Below are positions 1-26,602 of a DNA stretch of 64,000 nt, piece after piece (the first letter of the stretch is position 1; the number at the start of each line of letters is the position of its first letter). Under the pieces are notes generated by a model. It was given only the letters and a program-made list of their open reading frames with translations, did not search any database and was not told where the DNA came from. A program made the translations under genes and the position numbers. Origin of the DNA: a virus; the IMG/VR virus record IMGVR_UViG_3300025764_000004, positions 1 through 64,000 of that record, one strand, 5' to 3'.

Positions 1-492
1 TTTACGTTTACAGCTAGTTTTTTACATTTAAGCTATGCAATAGCACGCTTTAAAAATGTACGCTTAAACAAGCTTAAACAGCGTACAAATTATGTTAATA
101 TAAAATGCAGTATAGTACAGCACAATGTTATTTAACAAACTGCATTATTGCATTATGCAAAATACGCGCAAAGCAGCACACAAATACAAATACACTATTT
201 AATCCACTGTCAGTTTTTCTAATCTATCTAAAATTCTAATCTATCTGTAATTTTTTTTATTTTTAGTTTGCCAACAATCTTTCCTAAATTCAAAATACCA
301 AACCAAATAAAAAATTTATCATCAAAACTATTTTAACGTCAAGCATATAATACCTATAAATTTTACATTTTTACCTTTAATAGTTATGCAATACCGCAAC
401 ATTGCACTATTTCCATACGTTTAACAAGTATAAGCATTGCACAATTATGCAACAGCTAAAAATATTATTGTTAAATTAAAAAATTATACAGT

Positions 493-786
493 ATGCAAAC
501 TTTAACAACAGCACAAACAACAGTAACAAGCTATAATAAATTAGCTTATATTAATATGTTGATAAGCAAAAGTATTATGGAACAAAAAATTTGCATTGCA
601 AACATTACAAACGCATACGCAAAAATAAATAAAGGTAATGTAATTGCAAACAGTAATATAATGGATAAAGTTTGCAGTACTGGGCAATGGGAAAATAAAT
701 GTGTTAAATGTATTGCAAACAGCACATGTTACAGCACAAATAATAAAAATAGGTTAATTAGTTTAGGTATTAGTAACAAACTTTAA
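493..786 (+). CDS. Early hypothetical protein; only 3 Asp/Glu in 97 aa
   Basis: ORF track; A-rich leader; lies in the GA/TC-depleted zone. Confidence 0.6.
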   Translation: MQTLTTAQTTVTSYNKLAYINMLISKSIMEQKICIANITNAYAKINKGNVIANSNIMDKVCSTGQWENKCVKCIANSTCYSTNNKNRLISLGISNKL

Positions 787-797
787 AAACAAACAAA

Positions 798-1247
798 ATG
801 AAAACTAAAAAGGACATCGAAGACGTATTAAACATGACTTATTTAGCTGAGGACATGTTAAAAAGACATTTAGGCAATGTGCAAATGTACGTTGACATAA
901 ATGCAGGAATTGACTGTGACAAAAGAGCACTTGTATTAGAAAGTGCAATTGTTGATATTGACAAACAAACTGCTGAAGCTAAGGAAAGAGAAAGTTTTAC
1001 AATTAGTTTAGAACCAATGGGAATTGATGAAGACTATGTAATGACATGCAGTATTTGGTTGTGTAAATGCAACAACGAAAACAAAACAAAACAAAAAGAA
1101 TTACTAAAAGAGTTGCTAGAAGAGTTTCCAAGATTGAATGTATTTATGGACGATGAAAGTTGTAATTGGAATCCAGAAGGAGATATGGTTGGAGATGACG
1201 AATACGGCTATAAATTTGGAACTTTAAAACATGTTTTTAACGCTTAA
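798..1247 (+). CDS. Early hypothetical protein
   Basis: 149 aa ORF, A-rich leader. Confidence 0.75.
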   Translation: MKTKKDIEDVLNMTYLAEDMLKRHLGNVQMYVDINAGIDCDKRALVLESAIVDIDKQTAEAKERESFTISLEPMGIDEDYVMTCSIWLCKCNNENKTKQKELLKELLEEFPRLNVFMDDESCNWNPEGDMVGDDEYGYKFGTLKHVFNA

Positions 1248-1259
1248 AACTTACAAACA

Positions 1260-1352
1260 ATGAAAACTGAATTAGAATTACAAAAAGAGAAATTGCTTCT
1301 GATTATACAAATTGCAATACGCGAAGATGAATCTATTCTGTACACAAATTGA
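1260..1352 (+). CDS. Small early ORF (MKTELELQKEKLLLIIQIAIREDESILYTN)
   Basis: Manual translation; preceded by AAAACTTACA motif. Confidence 0.45.
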   Translation: MKTELELQKEKLLLIIQIAIREDESILYTN

Positions 1353-5178: not shown

Positions 5179-7146
5179 ATGGAAAAAGAAACACATCAAT
5201 ACATTATTAGTGAGTCATTTGCAAGTAAAATGAAAATACCTGCAATGTTCACTGCCGTGATTTTGCGGGAATCTCGTCTTGCTGTTTATATCTACGGTCA
5301 CGGATTGATGTTACATTCAGATGTTCAAATAGATTCGTGGATGCCTAAAGCTGTTATCAAACAAACATTAATGACATCAGAACAAATTGTAGTTCCTGAA
5401 TCTCATAAAATGTTACAGCAAAGTACAGATGCTTTAGATGCTTTTAAATCAGCAATGAATACCAACGAAAATCAAACAAATACTTTAAATACAACTGTTA
5501 GTATGCCTCAAAAAGTTAAGGCTGAAAAAACAGTGATTCTTGCTGAAACAAAAGACAGTACTCCTGTATGCTTGATTAAGTTTCCATATAACATGGAGGA
5601 CTTAGATAGGATTCGTAGTCTAAAAGACAGAAAATTTAATCCTGATGGCAAATGGTGGACTTCACCTGTTACAGTAGATAATCTACAACATCTGTCAGAT
5701 TGGGGGTTTATCCTAGACAACGAACTCAAATCTATCTTAAACAGATCAAAAGTAACGGTTGAACAATTATCTGTTTTACCAGAAGAGTTAAATATTCCTG
5801 GATTAAAAATGGAATTATTTCCATTCCAGAAAATAGGTGTTCGTTTTATTGAAGCAAAAGGAGGAAGAGCTTTAATTGCAGATGAGATGGGACTCGGAAA
5901 AACGATTCAGGCATTAGCCTATTTACAATTACACCCAGAACTTCGTCCTGCTGTTATTGTGGTTCCAGCATCATTAAAACTAAATTGGTTGAAAGAAGCA
6001 AATATGTGGATGCCTAATCCGAATGCAGATGTTGTGTCTTCAACCACACCTTATGTTGTTGACGGAGATATTGTTATTATTAATTATGATGTACTTTCCT
6101 ATTGGGTTCCGACTTTAATCTCTTGGAAACCTCAAGTGCTTATAATGGATGAAATACACTCTATCAAGAACAATGCTGCAAAAAGAACAAAAGCTGTCAA
6201 ATCACTTGCAAAAACTATATCACACATTATCGGACTATCTGGCACACCTATTATCAACCGTCCAGTAGAAGCTTACAATGCAATATCACTGATAGATCCT
6301 ACTATATTTGGTTCTTATTGGAGTTATGTTCACAGATATTGTGGAGCAAAGAGAGGACGTTTCGGTATGGAAGTCAATGGTGCAACAAATCTACCAGAAT
6401 TACATCAAAAGCTGACAGATAGTATTATGCTTAGACGTCTAAAGAAAGATGTTCTAAAAGATCTGCCAGACAAGATGTACTCATATGTTCCAATCGAATT
6501 AGACAATCGTCAAGAATATCTATCTGCCCAACGAGATTTCATTCAATTTGTTTTATCTACAAAAGGACAGGCTGCTGCGGTAAAAGCATCAAATGCCCGA
6601 GTACTTGCAGAAATAGAAGGTCTCAAACAATTGTCTGTAAAAGGGAAAATGGCAGAAGTGCTTACATGGATTGAAGACTTTTTAGAAGCAGATGGTAAAT
6701 TGGTTGTGTTTGCCGTTCATAAATTTGTGATAGAAGCATTAACAGAACGATTTAGAACCATTTGTGTTAAGATTGACGGTAGTGTATCGCAGCAAGACAG
6801 ACAATTAGCTGTTGATAGATTTCAAGAAGACAAGAACATTAGATTGTTTATAGGTAATATACAAGCGGCTGGAGTTGGTTTGACTCTAACGGCAGCGAGT
6901 TCTGTTGCATTTATTGAATTGCCTTGGACACCGGGTCAACTGGCTCAAGCTGCGGACAGAGTACATAGAATAGGTCAAAAAAATGCCGTGACAGTTTATT
7001 ACCTATTAGGCACAAATACAATTGAAGAAAAGATTGCCAAATTACTTGACAGCAAACAGATTGTTCTAGATGCTGTCTTAGATGGACAAGAAACAGCACC
7101 TAGCTCATTGCTTAGTGCTTTAATTAGTGAATATACAGAAACTTAA
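5179..7146 (+). CDS. SNF2-family helicase with HARP-like domain (SMARCAL1-like)
   Basis: ADEMGLGKT, DEIH, SGTP, QAADRVHRIGQ; KFPYN...RKFNPDGKWW HARP-like segment. Confidence 0.9.
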   Translation: MEKETHQYIISESFASKMKIPAMFTAVILRESRLAVYIYGHGLMLHSDVQIDSWMPKAVIKQTLMTSEQIVVPESHKMLQQSTDALDAFKSAMNTNENQTNTLNTTVSMPQKVKAEKTVILAETKDSTPVCLIKFPYNMEDLDRIRSLKDRKFNPDGKWWTSPVTVDNLQHLSDWGFILDNELKSILNRSKVTVEQLSVLPEELNIPGLKMELFPFQKIGVRFIEAKGGRALIADEMGLGKTIQALAYLQLHPELRPAVIVVPASLKLNWLKEANMWMPNPNADVVSSTTPYVVDGDIVIINYDVLSYWVPTLISWKPQVLIMDEIHSIKNNAAKRTKAVKSLAKTISHIIGLSGTPIINRPVEAYNAISLIDPTIFGSYWSYVHRYCGAKRGRFGMEVNGATNLPELHQKLTDSIMLRRLKKDVLKDLPDKMYSYVPIELDNRQEYLSAQRDFIQFVLSTKGQAAAVKASNARVLAEIEGLKQLSVKGKMAEVLTWIEDFLEADGKLVVFAVHKFVIEALTERFRTICVKIDGSVSQQDRQLAVDRFQEDKNIRLFIGNIQAAGVGLTLTAASSVAFIELPWTPGQLAQAADRVHRIGQKNAVTVYYLLGTNTIEEKIAKLLDSKQIVLDAVLDGQETAPSSLLSALISEYTET

Positions 7147-7369: not shown

Positions 7370-7715
7370 AGCAAATGATAGACTCTTTGAAGCATTAATG
7401 ATTCGTAAGGCTGCTGAAAAAGATAAAATCAGAAAGGCAAAACTGATCATTAAACACAAAGAAAAGAAGCACATGGTGAGGCCTCGTGTTGCTTTGACAA
7501 AAGGTGTAGCTCACGGAGAGAAAATAATCATTGATCTTAGCGGACCTGATAGTGATGCATTCTACCTTCTTAAATTTGCTAAGAAGTATGCTCTGCAATT
7601 CCAGTTAAATTGGAATGCTATTCATGATGAAATGACATCAGGAGATTATGATAACCTTGTAAAGGTATTTGAAAAACATTTCGGGGAATTTGTTACACTT
7701 ATAAAATTCAAATAA
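7362..7715 (+). CDS. Hypothetical phage protein
   Basis: ORF track. Confidence 0.7.
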   Translation: MTKANDRLFEALMIRKAAEKDKIRKAKLIIKHKEKKHMVRPRVALTKGVAHGEKIIIDLSGPDSDAFYLLKFAKKYALQFQLNWNAIHDEMTSGDYDNLVKVFEKHFGEFVTLIKFK

Positions 7716-7717
7716 TC

Positions 7718-7888
7718 ATGGACGATCTTAAAACTGTTATGATGAGACGAGACGGATTAACTTCCGAGGAAGTCGATAAAATGATTGAAATAGCCAGAGA
7801 ACGAATTCTTAATGATGGGGATAATCTTGAAGATGTTCTCATGGAGGAATTTGGACTAGAACCTGATTACATTTTTGACATACTTTAA
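7718..7888 (+). CDS. Small acidic phage protein (MDDLKTVMMRRDG...FGLEPDYIFDIL)
   Basis: Manual translation, 56 aa, fills the gap before the sigma gene. Confidence 0.7.
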   Translation: MDDLKTVMMRRDGLTSEEVDKMIEIARERILNDGDNLEDVLMEEFGLEPDYIFDIL

Positions 7889-7890
7889 AG

Positions 7891-8361
7891 ATGGAAAAAA
7901 GACAATTATCCATTTCAGACATAGGATTGATTCGAAAGATTGCCTGGGGATTTTGCAAGACTTCAAGATTAGATTTTAATGATCTATTTCAAGAAGCTTG
8001 TCTTGCATACCTCAAATCGTTAGAATCATATAATCCTGAAAAAGGAGCATTGAGTACCTATATGTGGAGATGTATCTCTAATCATTTGACAAATTATCTC
8101 AAATTAGAACAGAAACAACCTTTTGGAACTCCAATTGAGGAATTTACAGAAGAGTTGACATCTTCCTCTTCTAATTATTTTGAAAAGCTTCCAGAGGATG
8201 CTCTTGCAATTGCTAAAGTGGTAATTCGTACACCTAAGATTTTTGCAACTCGTACTCATAACGATGTTGTTTCTTTATTGAAAAATGTCATGGAACAACA
8301 AGGATGGCCTAGGTCTAAGACCGTTGCTGCTATTAATGTTCTACATGCAATTTACTCTTAA
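7891..8361 (+). CDS. Phage RNA polymerase sigma factor (region 2-like)
   Basis: DLFQEACLAYLKSLESYNPEKGALSTYMWRCISN. Confidence 0.8.
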   Translation: MEKRQLSISDIGLIRKIAWGFCKTSRLDFNDLFQEACLAYLKSLESYNPEKGALSTYMWRCISNHLTNYLKLEQKQPFGTPIEEFTEELTSSSSNYFEKLPEDALAIAKVVIRTPKIFATRTHNDVVSLLKNVMEQQGWPRSKTVAAINVLHAIYS

Positions 8362-8370
8362 AACAAAATC

Positions 8371-8441
8371 GCTTGAATTCAGTACTGTATTTTACAGGCA
8401 TAGCTTTGTATTACTTTTGCAAAATAACGCTGAATTCAAGC
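8371..8441. repeat. 12-bp perfect inverted repeat / long hairpin
   Basis: GCTTGAATTCAG (8371) and CTGAATTCAAGC (8430). Confidence 0.6.
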
Positions 8442-8655
8442 TAATTTTACGCTAAATTTTTAGACAAACTTAAAACAATAACAATGAAAAAGCATAAGCC
8501 TAAAATGCCAATAAAGATTCCTAATCAAGAGTTTTATAATCAACAGTCTGGATGGAGAGCTAATGATACTACTGCTCAAAGAAAAGAAGAAGACAAAGAA
8601 CACCATAATCAGAAAATGTTATCATTAAAACCAAATTTAAAACCAAAAAAGTAAA

Positions 8656-9018
8656 ATGGAAACACCAAATGTGAATTTATTAGAAGATGCAAGATTTGTA
8701 TCATTTTGCCGTACCGTAATTGCAGAAATTGTAGAAAGTAGAAGAGGAAAAAAGAATCTTCTTCGCACTCCTCTTGAAACTTTAAATGACGAAGGAAAAC
8801 TAACTCCTGATTGGCTAAGAAATGAATACAGATTGCTCTCATTGAAGCAGTCTACAGAACCAAAGTCGGTTCGAGATTATATCAAAGCTGTTGTTGAAAC
8901 TGCAATGTACAATTTGGCAAAGTTTGATCAGCAACAGGCAGATAAACTTGCAAATCAAGCAAAGGCTGACGGAAATAACAAACTAACACGTAAACCTCGT
9001 CAAAAGAAAATATCATGA
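8656..9018 (+). CDS. Hypothetical protein
   Basis: ORF track. Confidence 0.7.
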   Translation: METPNVNLLEDARFVSFCRTVIAEIVESRRGKKNLLRTPLETLNDEGKLTPDWLRNEYRLLSLKQSTEPKSVRDYIKAVVETAMYNLAKFDQQQADKLANQAKADGNNKLTRKPRQKKIS

Positions 9019-9203
9019 AAAAATCATTATTTGTATTGTTAATCTGTTTATTCAGTTTAACTGGATGTCAAGGCTTGAAGTATCAGGTAAGAGAAACTAC
9101 AATTTCCATTCAAAGGAAAATAGTACATCACCAACGATCTGTTGCACAACATAAAAGAGAACGTGCTATGGAAAAACAAAAAAGAAATGAGCTTAGACAT
9201 TGA
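9015..9203 (+). CDS. Small putative lipoprotein
   Basis: MKK-hydrophobic-LTGC lipobox. Confidence 0.6.
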   Translation: MKKSLFVLLICLFSLTGCQGLKYQVRETTISIQRKIVHHQRSVAQHKRERAMEKQKRNELRH

Positions 9204-10113
9204 GCAACTTTATCGTGATCGTAATGTAGATTACCGTACTGAAGGGCATAAACACACAAGGCCTGGATGGGTGAATACAGAATGCCCTTGGTGCACAACA
9301 GACAATCCAGGATATCATTTAGGCTTTAACATTGACGGTAATTTCTACGTGTGCTGGAAATGCGGTTGGCACCCGATCGGACCTACAATTGCCAGATTGT
9401 TACATTTGCCTGAATCTGAAGTAAGAGGTATCATAAAGCAATATGGCATCTTAATCCCATCGCTCAAAAAAGAATCTATCAAGGTAGGAAGAAAACCAAT
9501 GCACCTTCCTTCGGAAACAGGCCCTTTAGGAATGAACCACAAAAAATATCTAATTAAACGAGGATTTGATCCTGAACAATTAGAGCATGACTGGGGTATT
9601 GTAGGAACTGGACCGTACAGTAAACTTGACAATATGGATTATAAACACAGAATTGTCATTCCTTTTATTTGGGATACGGTACAAGTTTCTTTCGATAGCC
9701 GAGACATTACAGGAAAGCATCCTTACAAGTACATGGCTTGCCCTGCTGAGCGAGAAAGGATCTCTCACAAAGACATTTTATATGGCAGACAATCAGAATG
9801 GATTGATACAGGTATTTGTGTGGAAGGTCCTACAGACGTTTGGCGATTTGGTGTTCATGCCTTTGCAACATCTGGTATCAAATATACACCAAAGCAGGTT
9901 CGAGTCATTGCTAAGAACTTTAAGAAAGTCTGGGTCGTGTTTGATAGTAATGAAAGCCAGGCTTTAATACAAGCAAAACAACTGGTTGCAGATTTGAAAT
10001 TTAGAGGGGTTAAAGCTGCTGCTTCATTTGTTTCTTATGGGGATCCTGGAAATTGTCCACAGGATTATGCTGACGGATTTGTCAGAGGTTTATTAACATC
10101 TAATTGGTTGTAA
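9187..10113 (+). CDS. DNA primase (Zn finger + TOPRIM)
   Basis: CPWC...CWKC; VEGPTD; VFDS, GDPG. Confidence 0.85.
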   Translation: MSLDIEQLYRDRNVDYRTEGHKHTRPGWVNTECPWCTTDNPGYHLGFNIDGNFYVCWKCGWHPIGPTIARLLHLPESEVRGIIKQYGILIPSLKKESIKVGRKPMHLPSETGPLGMNHKKYLIKRGFDPEQLEHDWGIVGTGPYSKLDNMDYKHRIVIPFIWDTVQVSFDSRDITGKHPYKYMACPAERERISHKDILYGRQSEWIDTGICVEGPTDVWRFGVHAFATSGIKYTPKQVRVIAKNFKKVWVVFDSNESQALIQAKQLVADLKFRGVKAAASFVSYGDPGNCPQDYADGFVRGLLTSNWL

Positions 10114-12833: not shown

Positions 12834-12924
12834 GCTGAGTTATCCTTATGTGGTAGAGGAATAGATCGTTGGAGTGTTTTCCCAAAGTGATCGAATGGGA
12901 TGGGTTCGAACCCCATACTCAGCT
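12834..12924 (+). tRNA. tRNA-like RNA / pseudo-tRNA with no assignable anticodon
   Basis: Acceptor GCTGAGT/ACTCAGC, D-stem TCCT/AGGA with GG, T-arm ATGGG-TTCGAAC-CCCAT; elongated irregular middle arm. Confidence 0.6.
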
Positions 12925-12930
12925 CAAGTT

Positions 12931-12986
12931 CATTCTAATTACGGAGTCTATTGTTTGGACAGGGGTTCGATTCCCCTCAGCTCCAC
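12931..12986 (+). ncRNA. ssrA: tmRNA acceptor piece (3' half, encoded first)
   Basis: GGAC-AGGGG-TTCGATT-CCCCT-CAGCTCC-AC; CTAATTAC and TATTGTT pair with the coding piece. Confidence 0.88.
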
Positions 12987-13116
12987 TCTTTCGCCAAGGA
13001 AGATGCTGTTGGATAGCTCCCAACTGATTTTAGGAGATTACGGGGTAGCCTAAAAAAGAATGACAAAAGTATTTGCAGGAGTTGCATTGACGTTTGTACT
13101 GCATTTGCCCGTCCAC

Positions 13117-13244
13117 GGGGCTGACTGGTTTTGACAACAATAAGGTGAGTAATTAGTGATTTAATTCACAAAGAATGTTCTGCCTACAACAGGCAATGAT
13201 TATCAAATGAAAATGGCTGCCTAAGAGGTTGTCAAATTCGAGCG
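13117..13244 (+). ncRNA. ssrA: tmRNA coding piece (5' half, encoded second); tag GNDYQMKMAA at 13192-13224
   Basis: GGGGCTGACTGGTTTTGAC 5' end; G3.U70 acceptor pairing; tag frame ending GCT GCC TAA. Confidence 0.88.
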
Positions 13245-13269
13245 TGGGCTGCTTTAAAAGCCCATTTTT
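13245..13269 (+). terminator. Terminator after the tmRNA coding piece
   Basis: TGGGCT/AGCCCA stem + T tract. Confidence 0.6.
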
Positions 13270-13467
13270 AAAAAGTATGCAAAAGAAAAATCAATATACT
13301 GATCTAGAAATACAATATGAATTATATCCATGTTTGTATTATTATTTCAACTTCACTACTAACTGGTTAATGAGTTATAGAGTTGCCATGAAGATTGAAT
13401 TAAACACAAACTTGATTTACTTGAATTAATGTTACACAACAGGAACCAAAAGGATTAAAAAGTAAAA

Positions 13468-13493: not shown

Positions 13494-13883
13494 ATGTATG
13501 TCATAAGGAAAGAATTTCAAGCTAGTTGTATGCACCATTTATTAGGATTGCCTGAGGATCACCCGTGCGGACGAGTTCATGGGCATAACTATGTTATAGT
13601 GGTTGAGTTAAGATCAGAGACTTTAAACAAAATTGGATTTGTCAAAGATTATGGGGAACTTAACGTTATCAAAGAGTGGATTGACAAAACAATGGATCAT
13701 AGAGCTTTAAATGATGTATTCTCATTCAATCCAACAGCGGAAAATCTTGCAAAGCATTTATATGAAAGATTTGTAATGTTACTCGGGACTGATGGTATGT
13801 TTTTAAATGCTGTTGAAGTATCAGAGACACCCAAAACAAATTCACGTTTTTATAAAACATATAATGAGCACACAACTGATTAA
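13494..13883 (+). CDS. queD: 6-carboxy-5,6,7,8-tetrahydropterin synthase
   Basis: CGRVHGHNY, DHRALN, NPTAENLA, VSET. Confidence 0.93.
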   Translation: MYVIRKEFQASCMHHLLGLPEDHPCGRVHGHNYVIVVELRSETLNKIGFVKDYGELNVIKEWIDKTMDHRALNDVFSFNPTAENLAKHLYERFVMLLGTDGMFLNAVEVSETPKTNSRFYKTYNEHTTD

Positions 13884-14619
13884 AGCATTTCCTGACTTTG
13901 TAAAAGAGGAGCCTTCAGATAGCTTTTTAAGAGTGTCTGAGTTCTTTTGCGACACAATTCAAGGGGAAGGAATACATATAGGACACCCGGCTACTTTCCT
14001 ACGTTTTCAGGGCTGTGAATTATATTGTATCTATTGTGACACTAAAGAAGTTTGGAGGCAAGGCAACCCGTATTCATTCGATGAATTGTACACAATTATG
14101 TCTTCTGAAGGGTTGCCTAATAAATTACTTCATGGACAACATTTAGTCATAACAGGAGGGAGTCCTTTGTTGCAACAAAATAGTCTGTATTGGTTCTTGA
14201 CAGGATTTATAGCAAAGTTTGGATTTAAACCTTATATTGAAGTAGAAAACGAATGTGTAATCCCACCTAATTTAGGCCTGCAAGGTTTAGTAGATTGCTG
14301 GAACAACTCTCCAAAATTAGCATCAAGCGGTGTTTCCTCTTTTATCAGAATTAAAAATGAAGTTCTGTATAAAATGTCAAATCTGCAAAATAGTTGGTTC
14401 AAGTTTGTTATAGGAAAAGATGACTGTTGGTGTGAGATAAACGATTTAATTGAAGCTGGATTGATTCGTAAAGAACAGGTTATACTTATGCCGGAAGGAG
14501 CTACTCGAGAAGAAATTGCAGAGCATAAAGAAGCGGTGTTAAATATGGCTATACAACATGGTGTAAGATATTCGGATCGTTTACATATTCAATTTTGGAA
14601 CAGAGAAATAGGTGTTTGA
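13864..14619 (+). CDS. queE: 7-carboxy-7-deazaguanine synthase (radical SAM)
   Basis: TIQGEG, FLRFQGCELYCIYCDT, ITGGSP, SPKL, RLH. Confidence 0.92.
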   Translation: MSTQLIKAFPDFVKEEPSDSFLRVSEFFCDTIQGEGIHIGHPATFLRFQGCELYCIYCDTKEVWRQGNPYSFDELYTIMSSEGLPNKLLHGQHLVITGGSPLLQQNSLYWFLTGFIAKFGFKPYIEVENECVIPPNLGLQGLVDCWNNSPKLASSGVSSFIRIKNEVLYKMSNLQNSWFKFVIGKDDCWCEINDLIEAGLIRKEQVILMPEGATREEIAEHKEAVLNMAIQHGVRYSDRLHIQFWNREIGV

Positions 14620-14690
14620 AAAAGATGTGTATTAGTTGGTTTAGTTAGATCAAGAAACCTGGAAGTTTCTTGTGAGTTCTTTCAGGCTTA

Positions 14691-14717
14691 CCTCCTGTCC
14701 TTCGGGCAGGGGGTTTT
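14691..14717 (+). terminator. Terminator-like hairpin
   Basis: CCTCCTGTC...GGCAGGGGG-TTTT. Confidence 0.6.
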
Positions 14718-14815
14718 GGCATCAAAAGAGATAGGTTATGAAAGATATAGATTTTGAACCATTTGATCTTATATGTTATCCCGAAGTAGTACCAGAATCA
14801 GAAAGAGAATAAGTT

Positions 14816-15022
14816 ATGAAAAAACAAAAAAGATTTGAAATTGGGGATTTTTTAAAAACAAGAATAACCGGCATGCACCCTGAAATTATAATTTCAGATG
14901 CACCTCCAACTAAATGGCAGATATTTTTCTACAAAGTAAATCCATTTAAAAGATTTTTCAATAATAAAGAACGAGAAAGAGTTTATAAATGGTATTTATC
15001 ATCAAAAGAAGGTCGTTTATGA
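14816..15022 (+). CDS. Hypothetical protein
   Basis: ORF track. Confidence 0.55.
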   Translation: MKKQKRFEIGDFLKTRITGMHPEIIISDAPPTKWQIFFYKVNPFKRFFNNKERERVYKWYLSSKEGRL

Positions 15023-15291
15023 ATCAAAAACAAAAAGATCAGTTAAGACTGGCAGCTTTACTCATACACGAAGCTGAAAGTATTATAAAAGATGTTAAAT
15101 CAGAAGAACAAAAATCTATTAACGATCTAAAAATAAATAAGGCTGTTGATTTAAACAGAACATCTGAAGAGGTAATAGCTGCTCTAGAAGATGCGGAATA
15201 CTCATTAAAAGATGTAACTTCCAACCTTTCTACGACACTTGTAGAAGATTTTATTTGTATAATAGGTGTAAGAAATGTTTTTTACAATTAA
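15019..15291 (+). CDS. Hypothetical coiled-coil protein (start MNQKQK)
   Basis: Track ORF 14989..15291, internal ATG. Confidence 0.6.
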   Translation: MNQKQKDQLRLAALLIHEAESIIKDVKSEEQKSINDLKINKAVDLNRTSEEVIAALEDAEYSLKDVTSNLSTTLVEDFICIIGVRNVFYN

Positions 15292-15323
15292 GAATTAATT
15301 CATTAATCATTAAAATTGTTATT

Positions 15324-16058
15324 ATGAAAGCAAAATTGAAAGACTTGCAAGTCGCTGCACAAGAATTGAATGCAATCGGGATCGACCCGGAAATTGATGC
15401 TGCATCTACGGATGTAGAAGTATTGTTTGCTGGAATCAAAGATTCTTTGAGTGTTATTGAAGACACAGACGAGTTCACAACAAAGACTCAATCTGTTATT
15501 GACGAGGTTACAGAAATTGTTGAAGCCGACAAAGTTCCTGAAGAAAAACCAAAACGTCAGGTGAAACCTGTTGCTGCTCCGGTTGTTGCTAAAAAAGAAG
15601 TGGTAGAAGAGGATGCAGAAACAACTCTTTATGACAAAGTAAAAGCTACCGCAAAGGTTGCTGATTTGAAAGCTATTGTTGAAGAAGAAGATGACTTCAA
15701 AAAGATCCGGAAAGCAATCGACACGTTCAAAAATCCATTTATCCTGAAACGTGCAATGTTGGACATTCTGGAAGAATCTGATCCGAAACTTGCTACAGGT
15801 GCTGCTGAAAAGAAAGCTGCAAAAACAGCAAAGAAAGAAGTAGATCCAAACGCTCCAAAGAAAAAGAATCCTTTTGTAAAGGTTGCCGGACAATTGTCTA
15901 ATCTGGAAGTTGCTGAGAAGCTGTTATCAGAAAAAGCTGATCCGAAAACCATCTATGCTACATTTACCAAAGTGTATGAAGGCAAAGCTGGAGCAGACGA
16001 AAAGTACATTAAAGGCCGAGCAGACATTTACATGAAAATTGCTGCAAAAGGTAAGTAA
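15324..16058 (+). CDS. Charged Lys/Ala/Glu-rich protein, C-terminus paralogous to 1747..2385
   Basis: YIKGRADIYMKIAAK; TTGTATAATA motif upstream and terminator downstream. Confidence 0.8.
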   Translation: MKAKLKDLQVAAQELNAIGIDPEIDAASTDVEVLFAGIKDSLSVIEDTDEFTTKTQSVIDEVTEIVEADKVPEEKPKRQVKPVAAPVVAKKEVVEEDAETTLYDKVKATAKVADLKAIVEEEDDFKKIRKAIDTFKNPFILKRAMLDILEESDPKLATGAAEKKAAKTAKKEVDPNAPKKKNPFVKVAGQLSNLEVAEKLLSEKADPKTIYATFTKVYEGKAGADEKYIKGRADIYMKIAAKGK

Positions 16059-16082
16059 CTAAGTATTGATTTAAGTATTTAT

Positions 16083-16120
16083 GAAGCCCAGAGTTTAATT
16101 GATTACTCTGGGCTTCTTTT
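16083..16120 (+). terminator. Intrinsic terminator
   Basis: GAAGCCCAGAGT/ACTCTGGGCTTC + TTTT. Confidence 0.8.
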
Positions 16121-16132
16121 AAACTTTTTATA

Positions 16133-16675
16133 ATGACACCAGAAGTACTAATTTATAAAATGCTCTTAGAAATTGGAGAGGATCCTGACAGAGAAGGATT
16201 GCTAGAAACTCCAAAACGAATTGTAAAATCCTGGAAAGAACTTTACGCAGGGTATAATCAAAATCCTGCAGACTTGTTTACTGTATTTGAAGCAGGAACA
16301 TACAATCAGATTGTACTTCTTAAGGATATTGAAGTTTATAGTCTTTGTGAACACCACGGTCTGCCGTTCTTTGGAAAAGCTCATGTTGCATACATACCAA
16401 ATGAAAAAGTTATAGGTATTTCCAAATTAGCACGTCTAGTAGATGTGTTTGCAAGGAGAATGCAAATTCAAGAACGAATCGGAGAACAAGTTACTTCTGC
16501 ATTAATGGAATATCTCCAACCAAAAGGTGCCGCTTGTATTATCCAAGCCTGTCATATGTGTATGAGAATGCGAGGAGTCAACAAACAACAATCTACAATG
16601 ATCACCTCTTCGATGAAAGGGGAATTTTTGACAAATTTATCAGCTAAACAAGAATTAATGTCAATAATAAAATGA
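16133..16675 (+). CDS. folE: GTP cyclohydrolase I
   Basis: REGLLETPKR, SLCEHH, GISKLAR, QIQER, HMCMRMRG. Confidence 0.96.
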   Translation: MTPEVLIYKMLLEIGEDPDREGLLETPKRIVKSWKELYAGYNQNPADLFTVFEAGTYNQIVLLKDIEVYSLCEHHGLPFFGKAHVAYIPNEKVIGISKLARLVDVFARRMQIQERIGEQVTSALMEYLQPKGAACIIQACHMCMRMRGVNKQQSTMITSSMKGEFLTNLSAKQELMSIIK

Positions 16676-17001
16676 AAAAATTTGTAACTATACGAACACA
16701 GTTTCCGGCCGTACATTGTTGGCCTGATTGTAATATCCCATCAGTAGGGTATCTTGTATTTCCACATCGTCATTTATTTGTTATAAAAATGAGTTGGGAA
16801 GTGTCAGATAATAATCGCCAAATAGAATTTATTTCTAAAAAACAAGATGTGAACAAATACATTGCAAAACATTTTTATGATAAAGATTTGCGTTCTATGT
16901 CTTGCGAAGACATTGCAGAAAAACTGCTAAACAGATTCAATGCTGACTCTATATCTGTATTTGAGGACGGGGAGAATGGTTGTGAGATATTTAAAGACTA
17001 A
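16672..17001 (+). CDS. dpdL: T-fold QueD paralog, DpdL-like (putative CDG decarboxylase)
   Basis: LxxxHRHxF (LVFPHRHLF), SCE and EDGENG motifs; context. Confidence 0.7.
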   Translation: MKKFVTIRTQFPAVHCWPDCNIPSVGYLVFPHRHLFVIKMSWEVSDNNRQIEFISKKQDVNKYIAKHFYDKDLRSMSCEDIAEKLLNRFNADSISVFEDGENGCEIFKD

Positions 17002-17003
17002 GA

Positions 17004-18353
17004 ATGAAAAAATCAATCAATATTATCGACCCGTGCTCCACTGAGCAAAATCGAGGTAGTTTCTGTTATTCACCATATTTGTGTTATAATGGAATGGCTT
17101 TCACTCTTGATGCTAATTTAATCGAATCATTCCAACCAGAAGATTTAGACAGTATTCCTGATGCGGACATACAACTTGTTTGTCTGTGGTCCTATCCTCA
17201 AATAGAATCTTCGATGATGTTAGCTATGTCACTTCCGTTTATGTACGGTAAAGACAATGTCTATTTTGTTGGGTATTCACCATTAATCAAACAATTAGGT
17301 TTACATCATATTGAAGAAAAGTTAGGATTTGATCCATTACAAGATGAAGCATTCCTTGTTCATGCAATGAGTCGATACCCTGTAAATTATCACAAGTTTA
17401 AACGTTTGTTATTATCCGATTGTGATATGCATCTACGTCATTTAGATGCAGGAGAAAAGGTTTATCCACTGTTCACTTCATACGGTTGTGACCAAGGATG
17501 TTCATTTTGCCCAAGTACAACTAATTGCGGACGTAGGAGAATTGAAGTTCCTTTGTCTAAAGTTTGTACAATGTTAGATCAGTGTATCAAACAAGGCATA
17601 AAATCTATTCATTTTACAGATGAAGATTTCTTTTACGACATCAACCGGGCATTTAAAATCTTGTTAATGTTACAAGGAAAAGGAATGCATCTGATTGCAT
17701 TAGGATCTGCTGAAGCTGTTTCTTACTTTATTGCTAAATATGGTGTTGACCCAATTAAAAATGCAGGTTTAGAAGTGATTGAGATTGGATTTGAATCAGG
17801 GGATGCAGAAGTGTCTAAGAAAATGGGACATGGTAAAAGTTTGTCTGCTTGCGAAGAACTTGCACAGATGCAAGATTGGATTCCATTTCGTATATTCTGG
17901 TTAGTACTTACCTTCTTTCCAGGTGAGACAATTCATAGTTTAAATGAGACAGGACGCTTCATGTTAAAGTACGGATTTGAACAAGAAGAGGTGATGGGGA
18001 GGCTTCGTACAAATGGAACAAAGATTGGCCTTGGGCAATTTATGCAATGGTATGATGGTATAGCTATGGCTAAATCTTTAGAAAAAAATGGAATAAAATT
18101 AACGCAAAGGCCTGTAAGATTGATTCCTTCGTATGTTCCAAATTCGTTTTTGGAAAGTATAATTACTGAAATACACGAAGAAGCTATTGAAAAAACAATA
18201 CCTTATTTAGAGCTATACAATACTGCTTTGCCTAATAAACCTCTTGAAATCGGCAGAAAAATAAGCTATTATTTAGAAGATATGCCTATATACGGTTACA
18301 TACGCACATTAACTGCCTTAGCAATATTAGCCAGAGGAGGAGTCATACGATGA
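17004..18353 (+). CDS. Radical SAM enzyme, B12-binding/class-B-methylase-like architecture
   Basis: TSYGCDQGCSFC, FTDEDF, IGFESG after a ~150-aa N-terminal domain. Confidence 0.8.
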   Translation: MKKSINIIDPCSTEQNRGSFCYSPYLCYNGMAFTLDANLIESFQPEDLDSIPDADIQLVCLWSYPQIESSMMLAMSLPFMYGKDNVYFVGYSPLIKQLGLHHIEEKLGFDPLQDEAFLVHAMSRYPVNYHKFKRLLLSDCDMHLRHLDAGEKVYPLFTSYGCDQGCSFCPSTTNCGRRRIEVPLSKVCTMLDQCIKQGIKSIHFTDEDFFYDINRAFKILLMLQGKGMHLIALGSAEAVSYFIAKYGVDPIKNAGLEVIEIGFESGDAEVSKKMGHGKSLSACEELAQMQDWIPFRIFWLVLTFFPGETIHSLNETGRFMLKYGFEQEEVMGRLRTNGTKIGLGQFMQWYDGIAMAKSLEKNGIKLTQRPVRLIPSYVPNSFLESIITEIHEEAIEKTIPYLELYNTALPNKPLEIGRKISYYLEDMPIYGYIRTLTALAILARGGVIR

Positions 18354-18655
18354 ACGCTAAACTCAAATCTTTTGCATCGAATCTGATGCTAATAACAGGT
18401 ATCATTACAAGTATTGCCGGGGTTATTGAAACTATCGGTAAACTGGTATTGTCTTTCCGCACCAAGAATATCCCAGAGGTTAAATCAATCAGTAAGTCAA
18501 TAATCCCGGAGTATGGCGACTTGCCCTCGGCTCCTCCTACTATTGAACAGGTAAGTTTCTTTGCTGAGTATCGAGGAATAATATTGATAGTTACCGGAAT
18601 ATTGGTTATTGCATTTTCATTGTGGATTATCAAACGGTTAAAAACTAGAATATGA
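18350..18655 (+). CDS. Two-TM membrane protein
   Basis: Two hydrophobic segments; ATGA overlaps. Confidence 0.6.
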   Translation: MNAKLKSFASNLMLITGIITSIAGVIETIGKLVLSFRTKNIPEVKSISKSIIPEYGDLPSAPPTIEQVSFFAEYRGIILIVTGILVIAFSLWIIKRLKTRI

Positions 18656-19677
18656 GAACAGTAATATTAAACATTCCAATAGAACCTATTGAAGATAGAT
18701 ATAGTGTACAATGGGATAAATGGTTTCAGAGTGCTTTTCATGAGAATCCTGATTTAGAACTTATTAGTGTGCATGGAGGAGTTACTTCAGGAAGTATCAG
18801 ACAAGGTAGTTTTTTAGATGTCATAGAAACGAATCTATATAAAAATAAACAGTTAGACAAGATTCTGCATTATCTAAACACTTATAAAGATGATCATAAA
18901 CTCATTTTATTTTTCCATGATTTGTGGAATCCTGCACTTACATCAATAGCGTACGTTCGGGATGGGATGGGTTGGAAAAATCTACGTATATGCGGATGTC
19001 TTCATTCAGGAAGTTATGACAAGTTTGATTTTTTAAACAAACAAGGAATGACTAAGTGGGCAGCTAGAATAGAAGAAGGATGGTGTAAGATTGTAGATAA
19101 AATATTTGTAGCTACTCATTATCATGATATTTTACTACGCTCAAAAAGAGTATTATTAGATGATTGGGATAAAATTGTTGTAACAGGATTCCCTCTTTAT
19201 GACGATTTTCAACAACCTCATAATATAATGGATGACGAAAGTATTCCTATTATAGTATTTCCTCATCGTTTAGACAGTGAAAAGAATCCTCAAATGTTTG
19301 ATGAATTAAAAAGCAGACTACCAAGTTATAGATTCATCAAAACAAAAGAAAACTGCAAGACTAAAGAATCATATTATCGTTTATTAAAATCTTCTGATGT
19401 TGCTGTTAGTTTTGCAGATCAAGAAACCTGGGGTATAGCAATGCAAGAAGCAGTTATTTGCGGAGCTCTTCCGATGTGTCCTAATCGTTTGTCTTATACT
19501 GAAATGTACCCATCTGCTTTTTTATTTGAGAATTTTGAAGAGTGTGTCAACAAAATAAAATGGTTATTAGCACATGAGAATCAAGCTAATGAATTTCTAC
19601 AAAATACCAAAAATACAATTCTCCGTAAAGGCAGAGAAGCAATTCCAAATATGATTAAAGAAATTGAAAAACTATGA
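18652..19677 (+). CDS. GT-B (GT4-like) glycosyltransferase
   Basis: HSGSYD, FPHRLDSEKNP, QETWGIAMQEAV, RLSYTEM. Confidence 0.85.
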   Translation: MRTVILNIPIEPIEDRYSVQWDKWFQSAFHENPDLELISVHGGVTSGSIRQGSFLDVIETNLYKNKQLDKILHYLNTYKDDHKLILFFHDLWNPALTSIAYVRDGMGWKNLRICGCLHSGSYDKFDFLNKQGMTKWAARIEEGWCKIVDKIFVATHYHDILLRSKRVLLDDWDKIVVTGFPLYDDFQQPHNIMDDESIPIIVFPHRLDSEKNPQMFDELKSRLPSYRFIKTKENCKTKESYYRLLKSSDVAVSFADQETWGIAMQEAVICGALPMCPNRLSYTEMYPSAFLFENFEECVNKIKWLLAHENQANEFLQNTKNTILRKGREAIPNMIKEIEKL

Positions 19678-19811
19678 AAACAGACATATATCCAGATGAT
19701 GAAGATTATGAAGAAATAATCAAAGATGATTATGAAGATGATAGTGAATGGGAGGAAGAAGATGAAGATAAAGAAGATGGCTATGGTATAACTTCAGATG
19801 ATGAATTATGA
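19674..19811 (+). CDS. 45-aa hyperacidic peptide
   Basis: Manual translation; 24/45 D/E; ATGA overlaps at both ends. Confidence 0.65.
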   Translation: MKTDIYPDDEDYEEIIKDDYEDDSEWEEEDEDKEDGYGITSDDEL

Positions 19812-20887
19812 AAAAGAATATTTTTGATTTCAAAGTGTTTATAGATTGTGGGGCTCCTTCGCTCTACAATAAACTGTCTCGAAATGATTTATCTGGTGGG
19901 CGAGGAGTGATGGGCACAAAGATGTCGGAACGTAAATTTGATGATTACTCCTATGTAGACAAACCAGAATATGCTACTTATCGAGAAGCTTATATTGAAT
20001 TTATGTTAAAGCATAAGGATGAAGTTGATGTTTATTCAAACTTAGATGTTATCAACAATCCTAAACTGACATACAGAAATCAAAAGATAATCGAAGAAGC
20101 AGGGTTACATCCAATTCCAGTTTGGCACTTAGGCAATGATCCGAAATGGTTAGAAAGGTATGTTAAAGAATACGATTATATTGCTATCGGAGGACTTGTA
20201 CCTAACCCGACATCTGTACTGATTCCTTTATTAGATGCCTTATTTAAAGAACACTTGCTAGACAGCAAAGGGTACCCGAAAGTTAAGCTTCACGGCTTTG
20301 CCTGCACTTCATTGCCACTGATGGAACGCTTCCCATGGTTTTCAGTCGACTCGGCTACTTGTAGAAAACTTGCAAACTTCGGAAGTATTGTTTTGCCAGA
20401 TTACGGTAAACAGAATCCTGTTAGTACATTTCAAGTGTCTTCTCGTACAAAAAGAATACCAGAAGAAAAAGTAGGAATGTTTAATCTTGAGGATGCTCCT
20501 GCATCAGACTGGTTAACAGATATGTCAAGTCAAGTTAGGAAAGCATTTGATTTAAGATTAGATAAATACGGAATGACTATACAACAATTAGGGGACAGTA
20601 TTATTCACAGAGTTGTCTGGAATTATTTAATCTTCTCTGAAGTAATACAAAAGACTGTTCCTGCATGGCCGTGGAGTATGCAGACTAGACAATGTAAATA
20701 TGAGTCTGCATATTGTGAGGAAGATCTCGGTTACATGACTTTCTATTTTGCCGGAATACTTAGCAAAAGTGAAGAGAATACATTCTGGAAAGGTGTATCC
20801 CATCCTATTACTGAACGATTAAAAGGTTCACTTCGATCCTTTTTCTATGCACAGAACGCTGAATATGTACTTAGTTTAAAAAAGTAA
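19808..20887 (+). CDS. dpdA: TGT-fold DNA base-exchange enzyme, DpdA-like
   Basis: IDCGA, NLDVI, PIPVWH, IAIGG, LHGFA, FSVDSA; deazaguanine gene context. Confidence 0.72.
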   Translation: MKKNIFDFKVFIDCGAPSLYNKLSRNDLSGGRGVMGTKMSERKFDDYSYVDKPEYATYREAYIEFMLKHKDEVDVYSNLDVINNPKLTYRNQKIIEEAGLHPIPVWHLGNDPKWLERYVKEYDYIAIGGLVPNPTSVLIPLLDALFKEHLLDSKGYPKVKLHGFACTSLPLMERFPWFSVDSATCRKLANFGSIVLPDYGKQNPVSTFQVSSRTKRIPEEKVGMFNLEDAPASDWLTDMSSQVRKAFDLRLDKYGMTIQQLGDSIIHRVVWNYLIFSEVIQKTVPAWPWSMQTRQCKYESAYCEEDLGYMTFYFAGILSKSEENTFWKGVSHPITERLKGSLRSFFYAQNAEYVLSLKK

Positions 20888-23304: not shown

Positions 23305-23513
23305 TGACAAAGAAACAATTCGACATACAACAATGGGAATATACCTCAGCCTACTATGGGGTGCATGAAATAGCTGTACGGAATTTTCCTGATTACTTAA
23401 ATCAACAAGGCCAATTAGGATGGGAACTAATTCAAATAATTATTGAGAGAATGAGAAATGATCCTAATGAACATGCAAACTATACATTTCTATTTAAAAG
23501 AAAAATAAACTAA
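23304..23513 (+). CDS. DUF4177-like protein
   Basis: WEY...LNQQGQLGWELI...FKRK. Confidence 0.65.
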   Translation: MTKKQFDIQQWEYTSAYYGVHEIAVRNFPDYLNQQGQLGWELIQIIIERMRNDPNEHANYTFLFKRKIN

Positions 23514-26378: not shown

Positions 26379-26602
26379 TTATGACACCTGCTAAAAAAAC
26401 ACCAGATGGCAGAGAAATTCTTGTACTTTATATGCACGGATATGAATATCATATCGTAGAATCTTTACCTAGGAACCTAGGCGGTAATAAAGAATTAAAC
26501 ATGCCTCAGCCTTGTTTTATGGGGCATCATAACTTCGGATTAAGATACTGTAAAAAGATAAGTAAATATAAAAAATCACTTTTAAATTTTCAAATAACAT
26601 GA
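26375..26602 (+). CDS. Hypothetical protein
   Basis: ORF track. Confidence 0.5.
   Translation: MIMTPAKKTPDGREILVLYMHGYEYHIVESLPRNLGGNKELNMPQPCFMGHHNFGLRYCKKISKYKKSLLNFQIT

Follow-up and report, generated by a model that had tools for sequence, protein, structure and literature searches.

The DNA analysed here, hereafter the window, comprises 64,000 nucleotides (positions 1 to 64,000) of the IMG/VR record IMGVR_UViG_3300025764_000004, which derives from an uncultured phage with a genome of 74 kb and a circular map. Directly upstream of terS and TerL, and divergent from both, lies an early-gene cassette of ~3.4 kb (genome position 71,555 to window position 1,247). The core of this cassette is a desert in which four dinucleotide steps, GA, GG, TC and CC, are absent from either strand over 2,451 bp, from genome position 71,634 to 74,009 (this left part being locus L003, 7634-10009) and on through window positions 1-202. 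Position 1 of the window is an assembly break; bases 1-120 recur at genome positions 73,883-74,002 and the map is circular through the junction, with no physical genome end visible in the assembly. An independent metagenome contig, L174, crosses this junction at 100% identity, which rules out an assembly artefact. Further into the window lie genes for a sigma factor, for 7-deazaguanine biosynthesis and for a DpdA-family DNA guanine transglycosylase (Table 1).

Table 1. Features of the cassette and the genes considered with it (window positions unless marked as genome positions)
Feature	Position	Strand	Remarks
160-aa desert protein	genome 72,807-73,289	+	recoded paralogue of gene 1747-2385
Right-hand end of core desert	1-202	both	zero GA/GG/TC/CC; log10 P = -8.1 and -9.8 alone
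Island interrupting the desert	203-413	+	23-24 TC/CC, no GA/GG, G 5.2%
Second stretch free of the four steps	414-560	both	log10 P = -5.0 per strand
Transition-zone early gene, 97 aa	493-786	+	TC/CC 0, expected 13.3
Acidic early gene, 149 aa, outer edge of the ban	798-1247	+	TC/CC 6, minimum 5, expected 17.2
Normal-alphabet early gene, 212 aa	1747-2385	+	C-terminal three-helix domain, paralogous to the 160-aa desert protein
Sigma factor, Sigma70 region 2	7891-8361	+	PF04542, E 1.1e-11
7-deazaguanine biosynthesis cluster	13494-19677	+	
QueD	13494-13883	+	PF01242, 2e-27
QueE-like	13807-14619	+	Fer4_12
Cluster ORF	15324-16058	+	C-terminus weakly like the desert-protein domain
FolE	16133-16675	+	PF01227, 3.8e-70
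Small ORF	16672-17001	+	
Radical SAM	17004-18353	+	
Glycosyltransferase	18652-19677	+	
DpdA-family DNA guanine transglycosylase, candidate 5'-GR-3' reader	19808-20887	+	phrog_887, E 3.7e-41

The core contains 329 G and 411 C, none of which stands in a GA/GG or TC/CC step. Given the local base composition, these zeros have log10 P values of -111.6 and -109.3, one per strand (~1e-110). The ban spans promoter regions, 7-8 small genes, an intrinsic terminator at the end of the first early operon (genome 73,663-73,692) and intergenic DNA; it begins ~250 nt 5' of the first desert ORF and runs on for ~500 nt between the terminator and the next genes. A codon-matched null, in which each desert gene retains its own protein and the codon usage of the genome, predicts ~85 TC/CC and ~44 GA/GG where 0 are seen, and the codon boundaries follow the ban too. 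Among 50 unrelated viral loci rich in AT, no run lacking all four steps exceeds 173 nt, and in 77 of 80 TerL relatives none exceeds 104 nt, the exceptions being L115/G001 (926 nt), L111 (204 nt) and L120 (104 nt). Together, the analytic P values, the codon-matched null and these empirical control loci rule out chance or low complexity. The G+C content of the core is 30%, against 35% in the remaining genome, throughout which GR sites are abundant. Observed/expected ratios in the core are 0.66 for CT, 1.44 for TT, 1.18 for AG and 1.04 for AA, GC is enriched 3.6-fold, and its message contains more C (16.8%) than G (13.5%). No account of such a GA/GG/TC/CC desert came up in searches of the literature, and an Rfam search of the whole cassette gave no match.

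To the right of the junction the ban fades in steps. Positions 1-202 are non-coding and lie beyond the first early operon and its terminator. The island that follows (203-413) is the most C-rich, G-poor sense-strand window of the whole genome and carries a tandem 17-nt repeat (TTCTAATCTATCT..) at ~217-250; its freedom from GA/GG is weak when taken alone (11 G, P ~0.003). It may be an insulator or terminator between two early operons, either rut-like or the sole patch with template-strand GR sites. The second stretch free of all four steps comprises the upstream region and first 22 codons of gene 493-786. In the codon-matched null this gene has 13 banned steps in total against a synonymous minimum of 12, and just 7 of its 97 residues are D/E/G/P/W, compared with a genome median of 25%. 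In the next gene, 798-1247, the only clearly strand-asymmetric one, GA/GG steps are not minimised (60; minimum 47; expected 63.8). The fade leads from amino-acid-forced sites only, through avoidance of TC/CC only, on the coding strand, to normal composition from position 1380.

This fringe is what a preliminary description of the window had reported, as a strand-specific desert at positions 1-1260, and its counts proved exact in nearly every instance. GA makes its first appearance at 561 and GG at 579; the TC at 412 is followed by none until 817, and 781-1260 contains just three (817, 1127 and 1172); after the CC at 413 the next is at 1014; positions 1-202 and 415-560 lack all four steps on recounting, and ORF 493-786 does encode just three acidic residues (1 Asp and 2 Glu). 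The TC rate of 4-5 per 60 nt quoted for the SNF2 gene was an overestimate, the measured value being 3.0. The depletion lies beyond chance, with P(zero) of 10^-14.6 for GA/GG in 1-560 and 10^-10.3 for TC/CC in 414-816, and it holds under a codon-matched null (Table 1). However, positions 1-1260 are just the right-hand fringe of a core that lies to the left, across the junction, and the supposed early end at position 1 is the assembly break. The strand specificity is likewise real at the fringe but does not extend to the 2.45-kb core, where the steps are banned on both strands, and an argument built on the template strand or on RNA polymerase alone therefore does not account for it.

The core desert contains real genes. 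Its 7-8 small + strand genes contain zero banned steps and their proteins are written in a 15-letter alphabet that lacks Asp, Glu, Gly, Pro and Trp. The motif AAAACTTAC is common to nine early starts, in and outside the desert, at 4-14 nt 5' of the ATG. The 160-aa desert protein matches the product of the normal-alphabet early gene 1747-2385 (BLASTP E 6e-13, 41% over 69 aa; also tblastn), for which the predicted structure has a pLDDT of ~90 over residues 121-185. In the family alignment the conserved residues E, G, D, W, G, G, D and P are replaced in the desert protein by H, A, A, M, A, S/N, N and V, whilst the conserved K, Y, T, S, L, F, I and R are retained. A relative, P0002 (83-88% identical), contains no D, E, G, P or W either, despite ~20 substitutions and an insertion of 7 residues. 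The 160-aa gene is a duplicate of the normal early gene that was recoded into the restricted alphabet. The common start motif, together with the paralogy and the conservation in P0002, rules out non-coding filler. BLAST within the genome revealed no other recoded paralogues, and the function of the family was not indicated by any Pfam, PHROG or PDB sequence match or by a fold search, in which nothing scored above Z 4.9. A scan for sigma-70-type promoters showed no enrichment, although such a scan is uninformative for the probable Bacteroidota host.

The banned set equals its own reverse complement, not a single instance occurs in the core, and the ban persists between the terminator and the next genes; for these reasons the reader of these steps would recognise individual 5'-GR-3' sites in DNA, whichever strand they lie on. 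That the desert is a real, selected, DNA-level and site-by-site ban on real genes we regard as highly likely. The most likely reader would be the phage's own DpdA-type guanine transglycosylase, in which case the cassette would be the sole part of the virion DNA without the 7-deazaguanine base. In lambda and SPP1 the DNA immediately preceding terS is the last to be packaged and the first to be injected; by analogy, we infer from its position beside terS that the cassette enters the cell first. Its benefit would then be that the first genes are expressed from ordinary DNA. One possibility is that the modified base hinders an unmodified host RNA polymerase, as the preliminary description had proposed; this is weakened by the phage-encoded sigma factor, which implies that the host core enzyme also transcribes the GA/GG-rich later genes. 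The option we prefer is that host enzymes directed against 7-deazaguanine, such as Dag-type glycosylases and type IV restriction, would find no targets in the cassette before its products act. A DpdA-linked mechanism is, in our estimation, the leading but unproven explanation of the desert, held with somewhat less than even confidence. The GR specificity of this particular DpdA is a guess.

Several observations bear on this link from the side of the modification machinery. The desert genome encodes DpdA, FolE, QueD, QueE, a radical SAM protein and a glycosyltransferase. The DpdA-family protein, which has no Pfam match at 1e-3, is by tblastn 31% identical over 77% to the annotated DpdA of phage iggy and its relatives. 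The banned pair GA and GG resembles the published motifs, which are a strict GA for the iggy enzyme (PMC10484667) and GA and GGC for that of CAjan (PMC7544227). Host glycosylases that excise 7-deazaguanines are documented, Dag1 and Dag2 cutting DNA in proportion to its modification density (bioRxiv 10.1101/2025.10.29.685425), and the desert-protein domain is weakly echoed in the C-terminus of ORF 15324-16058 within the deazaguanine cluster (hhalign 81%, E 1.3e-5). Against the link, the 23 template-strand GR sites of the island lie in non-coding DNA, where they were avoidable at no coding cost. In the remaining genome GR-containing restriction palindromes enjoy no special protection, palindromes with and without GR being equally under-represented (0.77 vs 0.80), and genome-wide protection of such sites was consequently rejected. 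QueC had no match among the ORFs scanned, so the modified product is probably not preQ0; a QueC-less pathway of similar type in Cellulophaga phage phiST replaces all G (PMC10516641), and full replacement of that kind would leave no GR footprint.

The earlier suggestion that the phage modifies GA/GG is partly supported, by the DpdA family assignment, the FolE/QueD/QueE genes and the resemblance of the motifs. Among the relatives compared, the two complete ones without DpdA (G005 and G006) show no dinucleotide gap over background. However, a coding desert is also missing from six relatives that do have DpdA-like genes, including G004, in which the same rSAM-GT-DpdA module is present (50-58% identity). 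Nor does a desert occur in the phages for which GA modification was mapped: in iggy and CAjan no GA/TC-free early region was found, and their largest GA/TC gap x rate values, 16.6 and 8.7, fall inside the range of control steps. A second desert of ~3 kb occurs between terS and SNF2 in G001, the only relative that has one, with the same polarity. This relative (TerL 64% and SNF2 52% identical to this phage) is known as a 13.8-kb fragment, its desert ORFs are non-homologous to those described here, and its tail genes minimise GA/GG as well. Both desert-bearing phages have closer TerL relatives (70-73%) without a desert. Searches for further examples with the desert proteins, the G001 desert protein, the G001 TerL, the paralogue family and a DNA motif returned just this genome or desert-less relatives, and among cultured phages no relative exceeds 35% TerL identity and no DNA match was found. 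SNF2, which is present in 8 of 9 relatives, was ruled out as a desert-specific partner. Gaps upstream of terS in L092 (GC) and L101 (CA/TG) are non-coding repeat regions and not comparable cassettes.

This sporadic distribution would fit a reader unrelated to DpdA, namely a host or competitor enzyme acting at GR/YC, such as a nuclease, a DNA ADP-ribosyltransferase or a DNA-modifying toxin, from which the cassette escapes until its products neutralise it, DpdA being a bystander. A threat specific to particular host lineages would fit the deserts of this phage and G001 beside closer relatives without one, the desert is not predicted by the presence of DpdA, and the absolute zero and the symmetry of both strands favour any per-site reader of DNA. 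We consider this explanation unlikely. We know of no GR-specific enzyme that acts on unmodified DNA, a host nuclease with a 2-bp target must spare the host chromosome, and the GR-rich remainder of the phage genome would have to be protected in some other way, which again points to modification.

Avoidance at the level of RNA is less probable still. One form of it, which we judge improbable, holds that the early transcripts lack YC to evade Rho before any antiterminator exists, and that the core is transcribed both ways, rightward as early genes and leftward as the leader of a late operon to terS, giving an apparent symmetry; the C-rich, G-poor island would then be a deliberate rut site. Rho primary sites bind UC/CC, and Rho avoidance shapes coding-strand composition (PMC13323073). 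The set banned from the coding strand, TC plus CC, equals the YC specificity of Rho exactly, the TC/CC ban extends to 1247 on this strand whilst that on GA/GG reaches only 786, no other sense-strand window of the genome is as rut-like as the island, and the GA/GG-free zone of the + strand stops at 71,555, a short way into a small ORF that begins at 71,584 on the - strand. Yet Rho requires several YC per ~80 nt, such that selection on single sites should vanish and 2.45 kb at zero would be hard to hold, and leftward transcription through the core is only postulated. All hosts of the clade should have Rho, but nearly all relatives are desert-free, and GA/GG is minimised in the G001 tail genes too. 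Although the message strand here resembles the published Rho-avoiding transcripts in lacking UC/CC, and both concern transcripts exposed to host factors, those show a graded purine bias. Rho evasion predicts a purine- or G-rich message, whereas in the core the count is zero, GA/GG is banned and C exceeds G.

A per-site reader of RNA is very unlikely. Here the early mRNAs would avoid the dinucleotides of an RNA-acting defence, candidates being CmdTAC-type mRNA ADP-ribosyltransferases, which act at GA, and HEPN RNases, with preferences for e.g. UC or GA. The + strand message does lack all four words, and the ban follows the early operons and fades along them. However, this gives no reason for the closure of the banned set under reverse complement, nor does it suit a ban that persists ~500 nt past a terminator and begins ~250 nt before the first ORF, and we know of no single RNA enzyme that reads GA, GG, UC and CC together. 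Least probable of all is mutational erosion by a YC-preferring cytosine deaminase that edits both strands of the DNA which enters first or is most heavily transcribed, leaving only alphabet-tolerant genes, for although it would explain the absolute zero without per-site selection, the fade with distance and the persistence of amino-acid-forced sites alone in the transition genes, and the phage does encode a fusion of a UDG-family domain with a PolA exonuclease domain, the expected footprint (YC loss with a matching YT/AR excess and a fall in G+C) was not found in the core, where the product dinucleotide CT is depleted, G+C has dropped by only five points and GC is enriched, whilst substitutions at conserved positions (e.g. 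G to A, P to V) are not C-to-T/G-to-A deamination products, 23 YC remain in the island, and no anti-phage DNA deaminase of the YC-editing kind came up in a literature search.

Returning to the DpdA-linked reading, its fullest form would be a chemically blank first-entry cassette. A GR-reading guanine modifier would have caused ~3 kb of first-expressed genes to be rewritten target-free on both strands, including a duplicated gene in a 15-amino-acid alphabet, and so placed beyond the reach of defences against modified guanine; we put this forward tentatively and as somewhat doubtful. If the ban does mirror the way in which the phage modifies its guanines, genome sequence alone could reveal the motif that the enzyme targets, and a modification-free early cassette directed against defences that hunt modified DNA would be a counter-strategy not yet described. 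If the reader is another factor, the cassette, which is short and sharply bounded, would be the precise footprint of an early-acting, two-base-specific factor. In either case, these are natural proteins working without Asp, Glu, Gly, Pro or Trp, one of which has a normal-alphabet paralogue in the same genome, and they bear on how far coding sequence bends to a constraint at the level of nucleic acid.

In common with iggy and CAjan, this phage possesses a DpdA homologue with FolE, QueD and QueE, and its banned GA and GG overlap the published DpdA motifs. In contrast to those phages, which show no motif-free region, its pathway has no detectable QueC and an added radical SAM protein and glycosyltransferase, and its desert bans all GG and not only GGC. 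The Dag1/Dag2 setting is comparable in that a per-site reader of modified G with density-scaled damage would favour a modification-free early cassette; it was, however, shown in Vibrio and E. coli systems, whilst the probable host here belongs to the Bacteroidota, and the escape reported is loss of DpdA function and not site avoidance (bioRxiv 10.1101/2025.10.29.685425). The cassette also resembles regions of phage DNA that lead the way into the cell, in being a block of small early genes with a shared start motif, at the start of the early region, that is target-free and so would survive until its products disarm the host. The first-step-transfer region of T5 and the gene 0.3 region of T7 are such first-entering 'leading' DNA. 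Unlike these, the word avoided here is a degenerate dinucleotide and not a restriction site of 4-8 bp, the ban is total over 2.45 kb with its proteins rewritten, and staged entry would follow from position only. Finally, animal viruses avoid CpG against ZAP and TC against APOBEC3, and there too a two-letter word read by a factor of the infected cell is purged. Those are genome-wide statistical depletions, whereas the ban described here is local and absolute, applies to both strands and alters the amino-acid composition of the proteins encoded beneath it.

The avoidance of GA, GG, TC and CC at window 1-1260 is part of a much larger desert, that is, a stretch free of these four dinucleotide steps, which lies mostly outside the window. 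The core desert runs from genome position 71,634 to 74,009 and on to 202; across its 2,451 bp a purine follows none of 329 G and a pyrimidine precedes none of 411 C (log10 P = -111.6 and -109.3), whereas elsewhere in the genome such steps number about 14 + 25 per 200 nt, with observed/expected ratios near 1. The window covers bases 1-64,000 of a 74,009-bp record, bases 1-120 of which recur at 73,883-74,002; L174, a metagenome contig of independent origin, matches the record at 100% identity from 71,193 across the junction to 569 and carries the repeated 120-base stretch once. Hence the map runs on without interruption, and position 1, previously taken as the early end, is an assembly break. 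In an empirical control of 50 unrelated AT-rich viral loci, no run free of all four steps exceeds 173 nt, and literature searches for such deserts found no description.

Within the window, the counts of the preliminary description were reproduced: GA first appears at 561 and GG at 579, TC is absent between 412 and 817 and CC between 413 and 1014, 781-1260 holds three TC, 1-202 and 415-560 lack all four steps, and ORF 493-786 has only three D/E residues. Given local base composition, zero GA/GG in 1-560 has P = 10^-14.6 and zero TC/CC in 414-816 has P = 10^-10.3. The depletion also withstood a codon-matched null in which the desert protein sequences were fixed and synonymous codons drawn from genome usage; the desert genes would be expected to hold ~85 TC/CC and 44 GA/GG, the observed number is 0, and codon junctions comply too.

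The ORFs of the desert are genuine genes, recoded to obey a rule at the nucleotide level. The 160-aa desert protein (genome 72,807-73,289) matches a normal early protein, 1747-2385, over 69 residues (41% identity, E 6e-13), and the latter has family homologs in public data that are 51-71% identical. In a joint alignment, family-conserved E, G, D, W, G, G, D and P have become H, A, A, M, A, S/N, N and V in the desert copy, replacements that are not deamination products, while conserved K, Y, T, S, L, F, I and R are unchanged. P0002, a relative protein 83-88% identical to the desert protein, differs by ~20 substitutions and a 7-residue insertion, with D/E/G/P/W still absent. The domain common to both paralogs is confidently predicted to be a three-helix unit, for which structure and sequence searches gave no informative match; the C-terminal 47 residues of ORF 15324-16058 (244 aa, unannotated, in the deazaguanine cluster) match it weakly (hhalign 81%, E 1.3e-5), the closest paralog of the desert protein remaining 1747-2385. 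The motif AAAACTTAC precedes nine early start codons by 4-14 nt. Three of its copies are in the desert (genome 72022, 72342, 72785) and six accompany normal early genes as far as 4,955 (window 1247, 1735, 2462, 2622, 4408, 4942); it has no further occurrence on the same strand and, as the genome lacks Shine-Dalgarno sequences, is a possible early signal for translation or transcription.

Composition also points to selection as the origin of the desert, not to simple hypermutation: its G+C content of 30% compares with 35% elsewhere, with CT under-represented (0.66) and GC over-represented 3.6-fold. The 2.45-kb desert has 11 copies of GCGC and 5 of CGCG, versus 8 and 10 in the remaining 70 kb; CG is depleted (0.65) outside the desert, which does not share the CpG/GCGC avoidance of the genome.

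Features of the desert cassette and the genome (L003, locus of this genome; its 7634-10009 equal genome 71,634-74,009)
Feature	Coordinates	Strand	Remarks
TerL	genome 68,430-69,971	-	heads structural module with terS
terS	genome 70,477-71,127	-	heads structural module with TerL
Desert ORFs, 44-160 codons	L003 7888-9633	+	ORF calls
Terminator-like hairpin and T run	genome 73,663-73,692		after desert ORFs
Gene	window 493-786		TC/CC 0 (expected 13.3; minimum 0); GA/GG 13 (expected 17.7; minimum 10)
Gene	window 798-1247		TC/CC 6 (expected 17.2; minimum 5); GA/GG 60 (expected 63.8; minimum 47)
Later region	window 1380 onward		TC/CC and GA/GG normal; no ban
SNF2	window 5179-7146
Sigma factor	window 7891-8361
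7-Deazaguanine cluster	DpdA-family enzyme at 19808-20887		also QueD, QueE, FolE, radical SAM enzyme, glycosyltransferase
Primase, O-like initiator, helicase			encoded in genome
PolA with UDG-family domain, clamp loader, RecA, SbcCD-like proteins			encoded in genome

The desert starts ~500 nt upstream of terS, across a divergent intergenic region, and all four steps are still absent from the ~500 nt of intergenic DNA 3' of the hairpin. It is broken at window 203-413 by an island with 23-24 TC/CC, zero GA/GG and a G content of just 5.2%; no other sense-strand window of the genome is so rich in C and poor in G. The island contains a tandem repeat of 17 nt, TTCTAATCTATCT.., near 217-250 and is a possible terminator or insulator separating the two early operons. 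The ban returns from 414 and then weakens along the operon, the gene at 493-786 holding 13 banned steps in total against a minimum of 12, and that at 798-1247 minimising TC/CC only. It alone leaves avoidable GA/GG in place, which accords with the strand-specific ban proposed earlier; the core, which lacks all four steps, does not. On the coding strand a TC/CC ban costs only proline, a GA/GG ban Asp, Glu, Gly and Trp, so that coding cost, rather than a strand-specific reader, may account for much of the asymmetry between strands at the fringe. Elsewhere, ARAGORN places a permuted tmRNA gene at window 12894-13315 (+; tag peptide GNDYQMKMAA), and a single ORF at 23513-24733, adjoining the upstream side of the PolA polymerase gene, joins a uracil-DNA-glycosylase-superfamily domain to a PolA-type 3'-5' exonuclease domain.

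Among 80 loci taken as relatives (TerL 57-70% identical), the distribution of deserts is sporadic. The longest run free of the four steps is at most 104 nt in 77 of them, the exceptions being L115 (926 nt), L111 (204 nt) and L120 (104 nt). L115, from the 13.8-kb fragment G001 (TerL 64%, SNF2 52%), has a ~3 kb desert at the corresponding place, flanked by terS and SNF2 (the latter belongs to the core genes of the clade), with the same layers: a zero/minimal-step core, then genes with forced sites only, then normal genes. Its desert ORFs have no detectable homology to those studied here, and neither the closest relatives of the present genome (TerL 70%) nor those of G001 (73%) have a desert. Cultured relatives closer than 35% TerL identity were not found; the nearest are phages of Croceibacter and Riemerella, consistent with a Bacteroidota host. 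Other composition anomalies include an 885-936-nt GC-free stretch directly upstream of terS (L092 8618-9500, in G008; non-coding, GATC-rich, with many iteron-like repeats), 349 nt without CA or TG upstream of terS (L101 8094-8443; gap x rate 38; non-coding, of odd composition), and ~270-375 nt without AC/GT, AT, CA/TG and TA beside the deazaguanine genes of G004 (~26,600-26,970), which is probably a simple repeat.

Three features of the ban indicate a reader that acts on DNA, site by site, at 5'-GR-3' (GA/GG) in either strand: the four steps form a set that is its own reverse complement, they are absent and not just scarce, and they stay absent from DNA between the terminator and the next genes. 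The phage's own DpdA would be the prime candidate, given the motifs published for such enzymes: GA in phage iggy (PMC10484667) and GA plus GGC in CAjan (PMC7544227). This proposal, made in the preliminary description, keeps the support of the DpdA cluster and these motifs, but the link is circumstantial and somewhat more likely to be wrong than right. The two complete relatives without DpdA (G005, G006) show no dinucleotide gap above background, as a DpdA footprint would have it; however, the coding desert is also absent from six relatives bearing DpdA-like genes (G003, G004, G007-G010), including G004, which has the rSAM-GT-DpdA module at 50-58% identity. Furthermore, host polymerase with the phage sigma factor must also transcribe GA/GG-rich later genes, and palindromes in the genome body are equally depleted with or without GR.

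Alternatives include a reader unrelated to DpdA, and a per-site reader at the RNA level, against which the reverse-complement symmetry and the persistence of the ban beyond the terminator count. Evasion of Rho by a message free of TC/CC fits that set (PMC13323073), the further extension of the TC/CC ban on the coding strand and the rut-like island at 203-413, yet it explains neither the absolute zero nor the GA/GG ban in a message with C > G, and the hosts of the desert-free relatives should have Rho too. Erosion driven by a deaminase is unlikely in view of the CT depletion, the GC enrichment and the nature of the replacements.

In lambda and SPP1, the DNA next to terS on its upstream side is the last to be packaged and the first to be injected, and by analogy the desert would be too. 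Were DpdA the reader, a plausible pay-off would be that the unmodified cassette is spared by host glycosylases of the described kind that remove 7-deazaguanines and cleave DNA in proportion to how densely it is modified (bioRxiv 10.1101/2025.10.29.685425). No QueC was detected among the ORFs scanned, and a comparable pathway without QueC substitutes every G in the DNA of Cellulophaga phage phiST (PMC10516641), which counts against the DpdA link. So does the finding that iggy and CAjan, whose mapped motifs resemble the GA/GG banned here, have no GA/TC gap beyond control steps.
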